DNA from: a virus
Taxonomy: Duplodnaviria > Caudoviricetes
Virus record (IMG/VR): IMGVR_UViG_3300023283_000076
Location: 96,001 to 160,000 of that record
Direction: 5' to 3' (one strand)
Length of the DNA: 64,000 nucleotides
The translations under genes were made by a program, and so were the position numbers. Positions within the stretch are counted from its first letter, which is position 1. Each line of letters begins with the position of its first letter. The notes under the pieces were generated by a model, which was given only the letters and a program-made list of their open reading frames with translations, made no database searches and was not told the origin of the DNA. This document shows positions 3,246 through 46,217 of this stretch, in pieces.

Positions 3246-3515
3246 ATGGAAGATATTCTCAGGGAAGAGCGATTCAACAAAATTATGGAAGCAGGAAACA
3301 ATGGCCATTTCTTTTCTGTTCGCTTCATCAAGCGGTCTAACGGTGCCGAACGCTTCATGACCTGTCGCCTCGGAGTTACAAAACATCTCAAGGGTGGTAA
3401 CAAAGCATACGACGACAAAGTTCACAAACTTGTCACCGTCTACGATGTTCAAGCCAAAGGATACCGTTGCATTCCACTGGAAAGCATCTTTGAACTCAAC
3501 GGCGAACCTATCTGA
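3246..3515 (+). CDS. Early small beta-rich (SH3-like) phage protein
   Basis: FFSVRFIKRSNG...VYDVQAKGYRCI pattern; GGAG RBS. Confidence 0.7.
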   Translation: MEDILREERFNKIMEAGNNGHFFSVRFIKRSNGAERFMTCRLGVTKHLKGGNKAYDDKVHKLVTVYDVQAKGYRCIPLESIFELNGEPI

Positions 3516-28381: not shown

Positions 28382-28396
28382 ATAAATGGGAGGGGA

Positions 28397-28468
28397 TGCC
28401 GTTGAAAGGATTCGAGCCTTTAACTTTTTCCTATCAAGGAACTGCTCTGCCAATTGAGCTACAACGGC
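28397..28468 (-). pseudogene. Degenerate tRNA-Ile(GAT)
   Basis: 6-nt anticodon loop TTGATA, C54, no encoded CCA. Confidence 0.7.
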
Positions 28469-28483
28469 AATTTATATTATTTA

Positions 28484-31780: not shown

Positions 31781-31946
31781 CTATCCTTTCCTTTAAAATT
31801 AGTAACTATTGGACCGTGGTAGTCGGTCGATACACTATCCATGGGAAGAATTCATGGGCAGGCTGCATTAAACTATTAAAACTCGTTATCATACAATTTC
31901 TTCAACTTTGTGAAAAGCGGGGGAGGCAGGCCCCCGCTCAGTATTT

Positions 31947-34019
31947 TTATACAATATATTCACTACTAATTTCCGTTATATTCATCGGTGTAATATCACC
32001 TTCGAACAATCCAAATATAGTATCTGCCTTTTCTGGATGGACTAAAGTTCCATTACGAGCCTTAACATGCATCATGAAAAGATCATATAAGCTTACTTTA
32101 TTATTGATAGAAAGCATTGCTTCAACCACATCACGTATTGATGCTGCGTTGCTATTAACATTGTTAGGTAGCTCGCCAAATGCATCTGCATGTGACATGT
32201 CTGTCCATATAATTTCTCTTGTTTTAATATCAAAAATTACCGGCATGGCGCTTGTACTATCAAAATTTAAATCAAGCTTGCATTCGACAGTTTTAGGATC
32301 GTAAACTTCATTACTGTCAGGTTTTGATCTGCTCATCCAACCAATGAAGCAAGTATCGTGTTCTGCAAAAGTATACCCGGAGAATACCATCACATTCATT
32401 GCAACATATCTTATACCAGAGCTACGAGCATTTTCGATATCGATATCAACAAATTCACTAGCACCATGTGGCGCTCTGGTTATATCACCTGAATGATACA
32501 GTCCAGACCTCGGCGATCTAATATTACCATACCAAATCTTGTCAACAACTTTAAAGTTTTTATCAAACAATGTTGCGCTCAAGTCAATATCTAGCCCTAC
32601 CCAATACAAAAACAGGCGTATAGTGTTTGTTTCTTCATCCCCAAAAGGAAAACGAGTTCCTCTCGCTGCCGAATGTGTACCATCACTAGCGCTTCTTTGC
32701 TGAGAAGGGATGGGGCATCTTTCTAATGCTGGATCAACATATACATTACCCAAGTTTTCCAGACTAGAAAATCTGTTGATTAGTGTCTTGGATATTCCAG
32801 TTACAAGAGTATTAACTACTTTTTCGGGGAGAGCATCCTGTCCACTAATTAATTCAGCCCTTTGAATGTTCCCTTTAGGAAACACTACTCTCTTCGTGGT
32901 ACTTTTGCTTCTAGTTGCAAAATGACCTTTCAACTGTAGAAGAACTTTGGTTGAAACACTATCAGCCACAGATATAAATTTGTTTGCAACAATTATCTGA
33001 TTCCTTTCGGCACCAGCCATCCTCAATAGATGATCCAATCTACGCGCAAAGTCGCCGGGACGGGTTACTAATAGCTTAGTAGCCTTAACCGGATGACCAG
33101 ACGCCAATTGCCGCTCAACTTTAGTGCTAAAAGTTTCCACACTTTCGTTTTCACGTAATGGTTTGATGGCATCATATACTTTCTTGGAGTAGTCTCCAAC
33201 ATGCAAAGAGTGCGCCAACTTAATCCACTTTCCACTATGTCTTACAAGATCTTCTCTATTGATGACAGATTCTAATCCTTTAACAAGGATTCGCCTTTCT
33301 GGTCTTTTGAAATTCTTGAATTTAGTGTTGTCTGCTAATGAAACATCACCACCGGACATATGTGTGGCAATACGCAACACATCGTTGGGGTTCTTAACCA
33401 GTTCATTGATTGGAATTCCATTTTCTACCATGTATGCACCAATAATACACAGATTTTCCTTGAACGGAATTGTTTCCGGAAATACGAGATTTCCGTAATG
33501 TTGCAAGAACCATTCAATGATTTCCTTATCTGTACTAGATACAGAATCGTTTGATGCCAATATCTTTGTAAATATTGATGCAAACTCGTCTTCTGTCGCA
33601 AGTCCCAGAGTTCTAAACTTCACATTTTCAAATGCGAATTCTCTAGGAAGTTTTTCATAATCAGGCTTCCAGTAACCGTAACTCCAATAATGCATGATAG
33701 CGTTCAAAAACAATTCCAAATCACTGGCTTCGATAACCTGACGAGGGAAATTCGGATACATTGGTTTATGAACTACATTATCGCCTTTCAACTCTTTCAA
33801 TGTTTTAACTAATACTGCTGAAAGGTCTCCTAGCATATGATCTGGAAGCTCTGAGATCACTTTTAAGAGATCTTCATCCATCATATAACCTAGGCCCATG
33901 ATATTGGCTTGAAGGGTCATGGCCTTTGCTGTAATCTGTCCCGTTGGACTCTCACTGCGCAGGTGCGCAGGTATAACTACTTTTTCTAGCTTTTTGATAG
34001 CTATTTCTGTCTTATTCAT
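31947..34019 (-). CDS. ROT/TROVE-like helical-repeat protein with C-terminal TerD domain (690 aa)
   Basis: PMYPNFPRQV, RPGDFARRLDHLLR; TerD-like DIDLSA...HSGDIT.AP.GASEFVDID; start reassigned to MNKTE after an AGGAG RBS. Confidence 0.75.
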   Translation of the reverse strand: MNKTEIAIKKLEKVVIPAHLRSESPTGQITAKAMTLQANIMGLGYMMDEDLLKVISELPDHMLGDLSAVLVKTLKELKGDNVVHKPMYPNFPRQVIEASDLELFLNAIMHYWSYGYWKPDYEKLPREFAFENVKFRTLGLATEDEFASIFTKILASNDSVSSTDKEIIEWFLQHYGNLVFPETIPFKENLCIIGAYMVENGIPINELVKNPNDVLRIATHMSGGDVSLADNTKFKNFKRPERRILVKGLESVINREDLVRHSGKWIKLAHSLHVGDYSKKVYDAIKPLRENESVETFSTKVERQLASGHPVKATKLLVTRPGDFARRLDHLLRMAGAERNQIIVANKFISVADSVSTKVLLQLKGHFATRSKSTTKRVVFPKGNIQRAELISGQDALPEKVVNTLVTGISKTLINRFSSLENLGNVYVDPALERCPIPSQQRSASDGTHSAARGTRFPFGDEETNTIRLFLYWVGLDIDLSATLFDKNFKVVDKIWYGNIRSPRSGLYHSGDITRAPHGASEFVDIDIENARSSGIRYVAMNVMVFSGYTFAEHDTCFIGWMSRSKPDSNEVYDPKTVECKLDLNFDSTSAMPVIFDIKTREIIWTDMSHADAFGELPNNVNSNAASIRDVVEAMLSINNKVSLYDLFMMHVKARNGTLVHPEKADTIFGLFEGDITPMNITEISSEYIV

Positions 34020-34104
34020 CTTCGTTCTCCTGAAGTAAAGTGGAAGAACCATTTTCTTCCGTAGCCTCAAAGCACCGGCCCATCCGGTCTTTTAGAGTAA
34101 AATT

Positions 34105-34172
34105 GTCGGTAAGTTAAAGAGCTACGTTTTTTCCGAGAGTAAAAATTAGAAGGATGCTCTTTTATAGCCGAC
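34105..34172 (-). ncRNA. Conserved RNA stem element, copy A (leader of the TROVE/TerD gene)
   Basis: GTCGG-CTATA-AAAGAGC-ATCCTTCT...GCTCTTT-AACTTA-CCGAC; homologous to copies B and C. Confidence 0.7.
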
Positions 34173-34181
34173 TAGATGCGT

Positions 34182-34210
34182 ATACTAACACCATTGGTGA
34201 CTGATGTCAA
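34182..34210 (-). promoter_or_regulatory. Sigma70 promoter starting just before element A
   Basis: TTGACA-N17-TAGTAT with TG extension. Confidence 0.75.
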
Positions 34211-35456: not shown

Positions 35457-36203
35457 TTAACGATGTTCTGGGTTTTCAGCTTTTTTATTTCTTCCCTCAA
35501 ACTCTTCTAAATTATTTCCTTTGTTGGGTATTCCACCGTTTTCTTTTAACATTCTGGCAAAGTGTATAAGATTCCATGCCATAAATTGAGAAGTCTTTTT
35601 AGTGTATTCATTATCCAATCCTGCACCGTCATCTCCGTATGATTTTCCGGGTCCAATTTCTCCTATCCATCCAGTGTCTACTTGTGGTGGAATTGTATAT
35701 CCAATATGACCTAAAGAATATAGTATACTTTTGGCACAGTTTTTAACTCCATCTTCGTTCCCTGTTATAACACATCCAGCAACTTTGCCATAATAAATGT
35801 ATTGACCCTTATCGTTAGTTTGACCACTCATAGAATACAATCTTTCCATGACTCTCCCCCATATAGAGCTAGGCTCTCCTAACCAAATAGGTGAACCTAT
35901 AACTAATATATCTGCTTTATTCACTTTTCCCTCAAAGAATTTGGGCCAATCATCTTTCTTAGCTCCATGTTTTGTCATATCTGGGAAGGTTCCCGGAGCG
36001 AAATCATACTCTACGGCTCTAACTTTTTCAACTTCGATACCCTCGGATTTATATATTTTTTCTTGTTCGTTGAAAAGTCTTTCAGTATGTGATCTTTTAT
36101 TATCCGATTTTAATGAACAGTTTATGAATAATACGTTCATCTTTTCTTTTGATTTGGCTTCAGTTAAATTCTTTATGCCTGTTACTTTAGATAGATCCAT
36201 CAC
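35457..36203 (-). CDS. Flavodoxin-like NAD(P)H-dependent FMN reductase
   Basis: LFINCSLK...SHT, ADILVIGSPIWLGE, GKVAGCVITGNEDG. Confidence 0.88.
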   Translation of the reverse strand: MMDLSKVTGIKNLTEAKSKEKMNVLFINCSLKSDNKRSHTERLFNEQEKIYKSEGIEVEKVRAVEYDFAPGTFPDMTKHGAKKDDWPKFFEGKVNKADILVIGSPIWLGEPSSIWGRVMERLYSMSGQTNDKGQYIYYGKVAGCVITGNEDGVKNCAKSILYSLGHIGYTIPPQVDTGWIGEIGPGKSYGDDGAGLDNEYTKKTSQFMAWNLIHFARMLKENGGIPNKGNNLEEFEGRNKKAENPEHR

Positions 36204-45543: not shown

Positions 45544-45619
45544 TGGCAGGTGTGCAAGGATTTGAACCCTGACCAAGAAATTTGGAGTTTCCTATGCTAC
45601 CAGATTACACCACACACCT
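45544..45619 (-). tRNA. tRNA-Trp(CCA)
   Basis: Loop CT-CCA-AA; CCA. Confidence 0.93.
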
Positions 45620-45629
45620 ACAATTAATA

Positions 45630-45704
45630 TTCTTGGAAAGTTGAAAAGCTGTTTAGTTGAGTAAAAGTCAAATGTATAGAAGGATGCTTTTCTATGGCCA
45701 AGAA
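45630..45704 (-). ncRNA. Conserved RNA stem element, copy B
   Basis: TTCTTGG-CCATA-GAAAAGC-ATCCTTCT...TTTTACTC...GCTTTTC-AACTTT-CCAAGAA. Confidence 0.72.
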
Positions 45705-45713
45705 ATTTTAAAA

Positions 45714-45790
45714 TGGTTGCGAGGGTGGGACTTGAACCCACACATAGAAGGTTATGAGCCTTCCAATCTACCAATTGATGTTACCTCGCG
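45714..45790 (-). tRNA. tRNA-Met(CAT), initiator-like
   Basis: C1:A72 mismatch; loop CT-CAT-AA; lacks the three consecutive G:C anticodon-stem pairs. Confidence 0.85.
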
Positions 45791-45821
45791 TCCGTATAAC
45801 TATTTATCATTAAATTAAAAA

Positions 45822-45983
45822 ACAGGTAATTTAAAAAGCTTTTTAAATACCGCTGCTCTACCAATTGAGCTACCAGCGAACCAAAAAATTCATTATACAT
45901 AAACTCTTTGGTTCGCTGGGCAGGACTCGAACCTGCAACCCACGGTTCCCATATTATTAGAAGGATGCCTTTTTATGGCCTGT
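45822..45983 (-). ncRNA. Conserved RNA stem element, copy C, enclosing a circularly permuted tRNA module (YrlA-like)
   Basis: T-arm half precedes D-arm half; acceptor TCGCTGG/CCAGCGA closed by an extended hairpin; anticodon stem continues into the A/B/C stem. Confidence 0.8.
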
Positions 45984-45995
45984 AATTTTTATTTA

Positions 45996-46217
45996 TCATA
46001 TCTTACTATGTTTCTTCCATGTTGTCAAATGACTTTTCGCTGAGAATAATCTGTTATTATATCTTGGTGCCATTATATTAATATGGTGCAATGAATCCCT
46101 AATGTATTTTGTCATAACTTCTGGGGCCTCACATGCACAAAACTCTAAAATCTCACATTGGATTTCATCGATGGCTTCATCGAAATTAAGCGGATTATCT
46201 TCTCCTCTGCTATCCAA
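45996..46217 (-). CDS. Hypothetical protein or fragment
   Basis: ORF; EILEFCACEAPE. Confidence 0.45.
   Translation of the reverse strand: MDSRGEDNPLNFDEAIDEIQCEILEFCACEAPEVMTKYIRDSLHHINIMAPRYNNRLFSAKSHLTTWKKHSKI

Follow-up and report, generated by a model that had tools for sequence, protein, structure and literature searches.

A Conserved RNA Handle Linked to a TerD-Fold Protein Gene in Phages and Bacteria Points to a Ro60/Y RNA-Like Particle

We analyzed a 64,000-nucleotide (nt) stretch ("the window"; positions 96,001 to 160,000) of the virus record IMGVR_UViG_3300023283_000076, a 270,653-bp jumbo phage with 34.5% G+C that is rated ~79% complete, and find on its minus strand a gene for a 691-amino acid (aa) protein together with three RNAs, copies A, B, and C, that are built on one two-helix element, which we call the handle. 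We consider it probable that the 691-aa protein and the three RNAs form a ribonucleoprotein working like Ro60 with its Y RNAs, an RNA-protein particle that appears to be undescribed although its plan is known. This reading is carried by the conserved structure of the handle, the finding that RNA and gene are strictly linked, by position and by strand, in phages and bacteria alike, the transfer RNA (tRNA)-like module in one of the copies, and the TerD fold of the protein.

Bacterial Ro60/Y RNA has been tied to RNA decay and repair, and to our knowledge no particle other than Ro60/Y RNA has a ring-shaped protein for which small RNAs that mimic tRNA serve as adaptors. Here, the logic of Y RNAs seems to be attached to a different protein, or to one that has diverged beyond recognition. 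The protein family, with relatives encoded by many large phages and, among bacteria, in at least 581 species genomes, is at present unannotated or labelled "TerD family protein," with no RNA family on record; the proposed particle would provide a testable function for this large family of unknown proteins and add hundreds of small RNA genes to the annotation. Cultured systems in which a role of Y-like RNAs in phage infection could be addressed are Priestia, Paenibacillus, Brevibacillus, and the phages XacN1 and Weasels2.

Three RNAs with a Common Handle

Three copies of a common architecture had been proposed in an earlier note on this DNA, made from the letters alone, and we confirm all three on the minus strand. 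Scores are given for two models made from an alignment (A3) of 35 short copies: R1, a covariance model with structure, and R2, a sequence-only model.

34104..34173, minus strand: RNA copy A, handle RNA of the short class at the 5' end of the gene leader (66.0 bits, E 5e-14 with R1; 45.7 bits with R2)
45631..45703, minus strand: RNA copy B, short-class handle RNA between tRNA-Met and tRNA-Trp (55.4 bits, E 4e-11 with R1; fold z -2.9)
45821..45984, minus strand: RNA copy C, handle with YrlA-like module (Rfam YrlA 43.6 bits, E 1.9e-8; 5' half 21.6 bits with R2; fold z -5.3)
31947..34022, minus strand: gene for the 691-aa partner protein (helical-repeat domain ~aa 1-445, TerD fold ~aa 457-633, then C-terminal helices)

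Common to A, B, and C are an outer helix, a CYAUA / AAMUUW internal loop, a 7-bp inner helix, and the invariant GCAUCCUUCUA, with the parts following one another as outer helix, CYAUA, inner helix, (G)CAUCCUUCUA, variable part, inner partner, AAMUUW, and outer partner. The three sequences read as follows.

A: GUCGG-CUAUA-AAAGAGC-AUCCUUCUA...GCUCUUU-AACUUA-CCGAC
B: UUCUUGG-CCAUA-GAAAAGC-AUCCUUCUA...GCUUUUC-AACUUU-CCAAGAA
C: ACAGG-CCAUA-AAAAGGC-AUCCUUCUA...(98-nt tRNA-like insert)...GCUUUUU-AAAUUA-CCUGU, with one G-U pair

When folded by energy minimisation, A and B form exactly the two helices, and C forms the two helices around a cloverleaf-like insert. The genome of 270,653 bp contains the exact 11-mer GCATCCTTCTA three times, only at A, B, and C, where ~0.13 occurrences would be expected by chance. 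Both A and B show every element by which the family is defined, namely two covarying helices, GGCYAU, UCCUUCUA, the ...UUUCC 3' strand, and location on the gene's strand; copy C misses the R1 cut because of its 98-nt insert, its 5' half still being detected by R2. The loops of A and B also share UUUUACUC, as the earlier note had seen, and this string, which lies outside the family consensus, is present a third time directly 3' of stem A (34097-34104). At curated thresholds Rfam recovers only tRNAs in the window, and no Rfam family covers the handle in the window, copy A, or the seven related loci scanned.

Covariation and Conservation of the Handle

The seed alignment contains compensatory changes at 13 of 14 pairs. 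The seed copies were picked by a script that demands pairing, and 68% of shuffles passed it, so the script's counts are not evidence; because it was too permissive, new copies were aligned with the sequence-only model R2, in a profile test that replaced a poorly performing fixed-offset test anchored on sequence alone. Of the helix cells in 49 distinct full-length copies from outside the seed that were aligned in this way, 93.3% are paired, versus 60.0 ± 1.7% (maximum 66%; 500 trials) when the 3' strands are swapped among copies, and most helix positions show at least four pair types. The structure of the handle is real and not a product of copy selection, and the covariation that the earlier note had read from both helices of A, B, and C holds at the level of the family.

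In the consensus, the outer helix is closed by two invariant G-C pairs and joined to an asymmetric internal loop (5' C-Y-A-U, 3' R-M-U-U-U), and an inner helix that covaries, has 7-8 bp, and is closed by C-G leads into the invariant single strand (U/A)UCCUUCUA. Conservation in the 138 rows of the sequence-only alignment is as follows.

G-G-C: 100% each
Y-A-U: A 100%, U 92%
Closing C-G pair: 93% and 94%
UCCUUC: 100%; next U 99%; next A 88%
3' U-A-G: U 75%, A 98%, G 94%
3' U-U-U-C-C: first U 100%, C-C 100%

An A before UCCUUCU is found in a minority of 11%, which includes the copies in the window. A pairing check, which we report as a lead only, shows that CCUUCU can pair with AGGAGG using one G-U pair, as the anti-Shine-Dalgarno of 16S rRNA does.

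Linkage of the Handle to the Protein Gene in Phages and Bacteria

Homologues of the 691-aa protein are present in 80 viral contigs at 31-49% identity, and the regions upstream of them visibly carry one to several copies of the motif. Co-occurrence of motif and protein elsewhere, on which the earlier note had staked its proposal in advance, proves to be near-universal. Over 1.6 Mb of phage loci, R1 yields 240 matches at E ≤ 0.01, all on the gene's strand, with at least one in each of the 78 phage loci searched (weak in two, L073 and L075); in 80 bacterial loci it yields 126 matches, 125 of which are on the gene's strand, distributed over 77 loci from many phyla. Cores defined by the 5' sequence give the same picture in phage loci, 130 of 138 lying on the gene's strand and either ≤1.5 kb upstream or ≤2 kb downstream. 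The handle is also found beside the genes of named phages whose proteins are 24-31% identical to the 691-aa protein, that is, XacN1 (three copies directly upstream of the gene, the best at 50 bits), Weasels2 (copies directly downstream), RcXuper, WXIN, and, weakly, LpeD, and a copy directly downstream of the gene is found in one further relative, whose phylum is that of the Gaiellales locus L112. Canonical rsr loci used as controls give no R1 match, although YrlA-like RNAs are present there.

The position of the copies bears on a simpler explanation, namely, that the handle is only a cis-acting leader of the protein mRNA, an autoregulatory operator or attenuator, with no free RNA partner and with the extra copies being decoys or leftovers. 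Copy A is indeed located in the 5' leader, 75 of 89 gene-strand cores in bacterial loci fall 0-1.5 kb upstream, in many loci 10-60 nt separate the ribosome-binding site from the end of the nearest copy, and the pairing check extends to AGGAGG-type ribosome-binding sites, with which CCUUCU can pair. We nevertheless regard a leader function alone as unlikely: 50 of the 130 gene-linked cores in phage loci are downstream of the gene, as are the Weasels2 copies and that of L175, and B and C lie 11.5 kb from the gene, behind a promoter of their own and in a tRNA cluster. In addition, arrays reach 8-9 copies with differing apical modules, including tRNA mimics. None of these features would be expected of a leader alone.

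The tRNA surroundings need separate consideration. Copies B and C flank tRNA genes, related phage loci sit within clusters of tRNA and transfer-messenger RNA (tmRNA) genes, and T-arm-like hairpins occur in many copies, all of which would fit elements that serve tRNA operons as processing signals or spacer signals, or that are degenerate repeats derived from tRNAs, and whose link to the gene arises only through shared tRNA clusters. That the handle is of this kind is, in our estimate, extremely unlikely, as nearly all R1 matches lie within ~1.5 kb of the gene and the tRNAs are spread over 20-kb loci, bacterial matches cluster directly upstream of the gene (in flanks of 3 kb at most), and the window contains 17 tRNA genes, every one on the minus strand, versus three handles in the entire genome. 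Some of the related loci have a tmRNA a few kilobases from the protein gene and on the same strand (L006:15179-15524, L058:19005-19385, and L017:17097-17410), that of L017 being permuted.

A Permuted tRNA Mimic in Copy C

The insert of copy C contains the following domain, defined by the fold and by alignment to Rfam YrlA.

45849..45946, minus strand: permuted tRNA-like domain inside copy C

It runs from the 3' strand of the anticodon stem through a T arm (GGUUCGAGUCC), an acceptor stem closed into a ~21-bp hairpin, and a D arm to the 5' strand of the anticodon stem; it is devoid of an anticodon loop, and the "anticodon" stem opens into the handle. This layout is the YrlA plan, and it supports the description of the RNAs as Y-like in the earlier note. 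The comparison with Rfam YrlA models suggested there bore out in part: C matches YrlA (RF02553) in a local search, with a score under the 69-bit gathering threshold, and copy A has nothing relevant in Rfam even at E ≤ 10. The subthreshold score of C is not decisive, because canonical rsr loci in divergent taxa score in that range. In control loci, taken from Bacillota for their canonical TROVE genes, the YrlA-like matches reach 39.8-39.9 bits directly upstream of two genes (L167 and L169) and 33.8 bits beside a broken TROVE frame (L170). The columns of the YrlA alignment that form the canonical Rsr-binding stem are marked as non-pairing for copy C, and no TROVE gene adjoins it.

T-arm or full tRNA-like modules are present in ~30 of 182 distinct family copies, and where both loops occur, the T loop precedes the D loop in 13 cases and follows it in 0. 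None of the tRNA-like copies in seven related loci attains the Rfam YrlA threshold. At one locus (L003:3397-3500, plus strand), the 5' half of a handle is followed directly by a tRNA in the normal, unpermuted order (Rfam tRNA 47.1 bits at 3424-3494), and some members of the family may therefore carry a whole tRNA as module.

The 691-aa Protein

The AlphaFold model of the 691-aa protein is confident (predicted local distance difference test 85, predicted template modeling [TM] score 0.82). Its residues ~457-633 superpose on solved TerD-fold structures (3ibz, Z 14.5, root-mean-square deviation 2.6 Å over 149 residues; 2qng, Z 13.2; 2kxt, Z 12.1), and among Swiss-Prot AlphaFold models this region matches TerZ with an E value of 7e-8; the Pfam TerD score is 15.5 bits, under the threshold of 25.3 bits. 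At the level of the predicted structure, the TerD fold of the C-terminal globular domain is confirmed, and with it that half of the earlier designation "TROVE-like/TerD protein." The helical domain contains many Arg, Lys, and His residues that are invariant across the family.

The best-matching family is NCBIfam NF041916 (the MXAN_6230/SCO0854 RING family), at 360 bits and E 2.5e-107, with the best stretch at profile positions 383-758. The 600-bit cut-off of this family is not reached, and the Pfam scan of the 691-aa protein shows no RING family, so that, judged from the profile match, the protein is clearly a homologue of the family's body and not a member; one extra long relative is likewise without RING. 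It also matches phrog_33734, of function not known. Its fold neighbours are TerD-family, RING-finger family, and DUF4132 proteins, the last being neighbours of the helical domain, and an Atlas neighbour at a TM score of 0.53 belongs to a cluster with Prok-RING_4 in 98% of members. The link to the Prok-RING_4 architecture drawn by the earlier note is thereby borne out. The earlier note knew of no described RNA partner, and literature searches found no paper that pairs the protein with an RNA, and none describing an RNA partner of the MXAN_6230/SCO0854 family. A survey of jumbo phages mentions ROT/TROVE proteins and TerD, each separately. Defence-system models give no match to the 691-aa protein.

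The handle could instead be bound by some other host or phage factor, with the neighbouring protein functionally unrelated to it, for example a TerD-type stress or nucleotide sensor. TerD domains have been proposed as ligand sensors (PMC7159879), and what ties the handle to the protein is genomic linkage. We judge this alternative very unlikely all the same, since same-strand linkage holds down to 24% protein identity and across many phyla, and no other neighbouring gene is conserved across the loci that encode a homologue.

Comparison with Ro60 and Y RNAs

In Ro60/Rsr systems, as here, the small RNA or RNAs (YrlA/YrlB) are encoded beside the protein gene and on the same strand, and consist of a stem, in which two helices flank an asymmetric internal loop, and of a variable module. 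In each case, one RNA or more has a permuted tRNA-like domain (T arm, closed acceptor stem, and D arm), and the 3' strand of the handle's internal loop, AACUU..., resembles AaAcUuG of the YrlA consensus, a likeness of sequence that hints at a relationship between the handle and the YrlA stem. Both proteins have a helical-repeat domain followed by a globular domain. The differences lie in the TerD fold, which takes the place of the vWA/MIDAS domain of Ro60 in a protein without detectable TROVE, and in the handle, which does not have the CGA(A) motif of canonical Y RNAs and has invariants of its own, GGCYAU and UCCUUCUA. Chen et al. (2014; PMC4201824) confined their Y RNA search to genomes annotated with TROVE proteins and could therefore not have found the handle family. 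A phage with a Ro60 of its own is known in Thermus phage phiLo, in which it is accompanied by Yrl1 and Yrl2 (PMC12135203).

The relationship to the MXAN_6230/SCO0854 RING family (Prok-RING_4 architecture) consists of clear homology over the helical and TerD body, with an N-terminal RING there and none detected in the 691-aa protein. TerD, TerZ, and TerE tellurite-resistance and stress proteins have the same fold as residues ~457-633; unlike them, TerD is here the C-terminal domain of a large helical protein that is linked to RNAs.

A Probable Ribonucleoprotein Particle

Several results weigh against a particle of the Ro60 type. The 691-aa protein has no Pfam TROVE match at E ≤ 0.1, nor is there any Pfam TROVE elsewhere in the phage genome, and the profile-profile probability of the family versus canonical Rsr is 0.3%; TROVE is also missing from five bacterial genomes that carry the 691-aa family and was not recovered in the profile search of Protein Data Bank sequences, among Swiss-Prot AlphaFold models, or in an Atlas feature search. 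With respect to the ring of HEAT-like repeats that characterizes Ro60/Rsr proteins, no solved structure other than Deinococcus Rsr (2nvo) can be aligned to >200 residues of the helical domain; its alignments of 312 and 269 residues have Z scores of 7.0 and 7.3, respectively, which are within the noise of helical repeats, as unrelated 100-residue repeat segments reach Z 8.7. The Foldseek E values for the resemblance are weak (0.06-0.3), and a TROVE cluster of the AlphaFold database appears at rank 26 (E 0.13). The "TROVE-like" half of the earlier designation is accordingly not upheld by sequence, and by modelled structure the helical domain resembles Rsr only weakly. On the RNA side, the phage sequence is in no RNA run, and RNA-library contigs of Priestia megaterium relatives span the homologous locus, but contigs cannot show RNA ends. 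Copy A, lying within the 5' leader, may have a purely cis-regulatory role.

Links to RNA-repair genes are sporadic, and there is no RtcB or RlaP in the genome of this phage. Such neighbours comprise an RtcB in Weasels2, an RNA ligase at one phage locus, and RlaP-like nucleotidyltransferases at five to six phage loci.

In one bacterial assembly, the gene has as neighbours two RlaP nucleotidyltransferases, RtcA, and, in divergent orientation, an 830-aa DUF4132 protein (L172:176-7424). The only RNA-ligase-family gene in the genome of the phage itself (C1:48375-48989, minus strand; PF09414, 70.8 bits, in a 410-aa frame) is located ~47 kb before the start of the window. In an oligo-dT RNA library of a P. 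megaterium relative, two contigs, one of depth 125 and one of depth 62, have their break within the handle RNA that precedes the homologous gene (L134:2788-2811), a break that may mark an RNA end, which contigs cannot show.

We infer for the proposed Ro60-like particle that protein and RNAs bind, that the RNAs are processed, and that the whole serves in RNA quality control, RNA repair, or counter-defence. The 691-aa protein would bind the conserved handle as its putative binding site, and the apical part would be a swappable module, a permuted tRNA mimic in C and an A/U-rich loop in A and B. By analogy with Y RNAs, this module might recruit or decoy other factors, such as tRNA-handling enzymes or nucleases. 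Copy A would arise with the mRNA of the protein itself, as its 5' end, and therefore be co-expressed with the protein, and then be either cut off or feed back on translation; C and B would share a promoter of their own with tRNA-Met and tRNA-Trp and be released by tRNA processing.

A more far-reaching synthesis, which we find conceivable though doubtful, is a second lineage of Y-RNA-type particles that is independent of Ro60. In such a particle, an SCO0854-type helical protein with a ligand-sensing TerD domain would grip a universal handle, whose CCUUCU strand would mimic the anti-Shine-Dalgarno tail of 16S rRNA, and the modules (tRNA mimics, T-arm hairpins, and whole tRNAs) would be interchangeable. 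Against tRNA- or rRNA-cutting nucleases of the host, phage arrays might then act as decoys or adaptors, with TerD switching the particle on a nucleotide or Ca2+ signal.

Gene Setting and Predicted Transcripts

The elements around the gene and the three RNAs are the following.

34182..34210, minus strand: sigma-70-type promoter, TTGACA-17-TAGTAT with upstream TG, ending ~9 nt before RNA copy A (consensus match only)
34023..34103, minus strand: remainder of the 5' leader, two hairpins followed by an AGGAG ribosome-binding site
31916..31938, detected on the plus strand, arms palindromic: GC-rich hairpin with T runs directly after the stop codon, likely terminator of the 691-aa gene
46000..46028, minus strand: promoter-like site TTGACA-17-TAAGAT, ending ~15 nt before RNA copy C (consensus match only)
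45714..45790, minus strand: tRNA-Met(CAU), placed between C and B and presumably cotranscribed with them
45544..45619, minus strand: tRNA-Trp(CCA), directly downstream of copy B

The promoter at 34210..34182 agrees with the transcript start that the earlier note had predicted just before stem A; promoter-like sites are no more numerous in the region overall than in its shuffles. From the two promoter-like sites, before A and before C, two transcripts are likely, one comprising A, the leader, the gene, and the terminator (31916-31938), and the other C, tRNA-Met, B, and tRNA-Trp. Folding of the entire 5' leader is not better than that of shuffles (z -0.67). A hairpin of 7 bp (34042-34060, minus strand) that separates copy A from the ribosome-binding site has a weak U-rich tail and is weakly terminator-like; it is not better than chance in the scan and could act as an attenuator. 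The start codon of the gene is the ATG at 34022, given the AGGAG 8 nt upstream and the alignment of homologues from residue 1, and a TTG at 34070 was rejected in its favour. Megablast against the phage collection gives no match for the gene region or the B/C region.

At 28394-28469 (minus strand), ARAGORN calls a tRNA with a two-base anticodon reading "ga," identity undetermined, where the Rfam tRNA score is 58.2 bits. A gene for an NADPH-dependent FMN reductase family protein (35457-36203, minus strand; Pfam E 4e-11) lies 1.3 kb upstream of the 691-aa gene and is kept at the equivalent place in the closest relative, L171.

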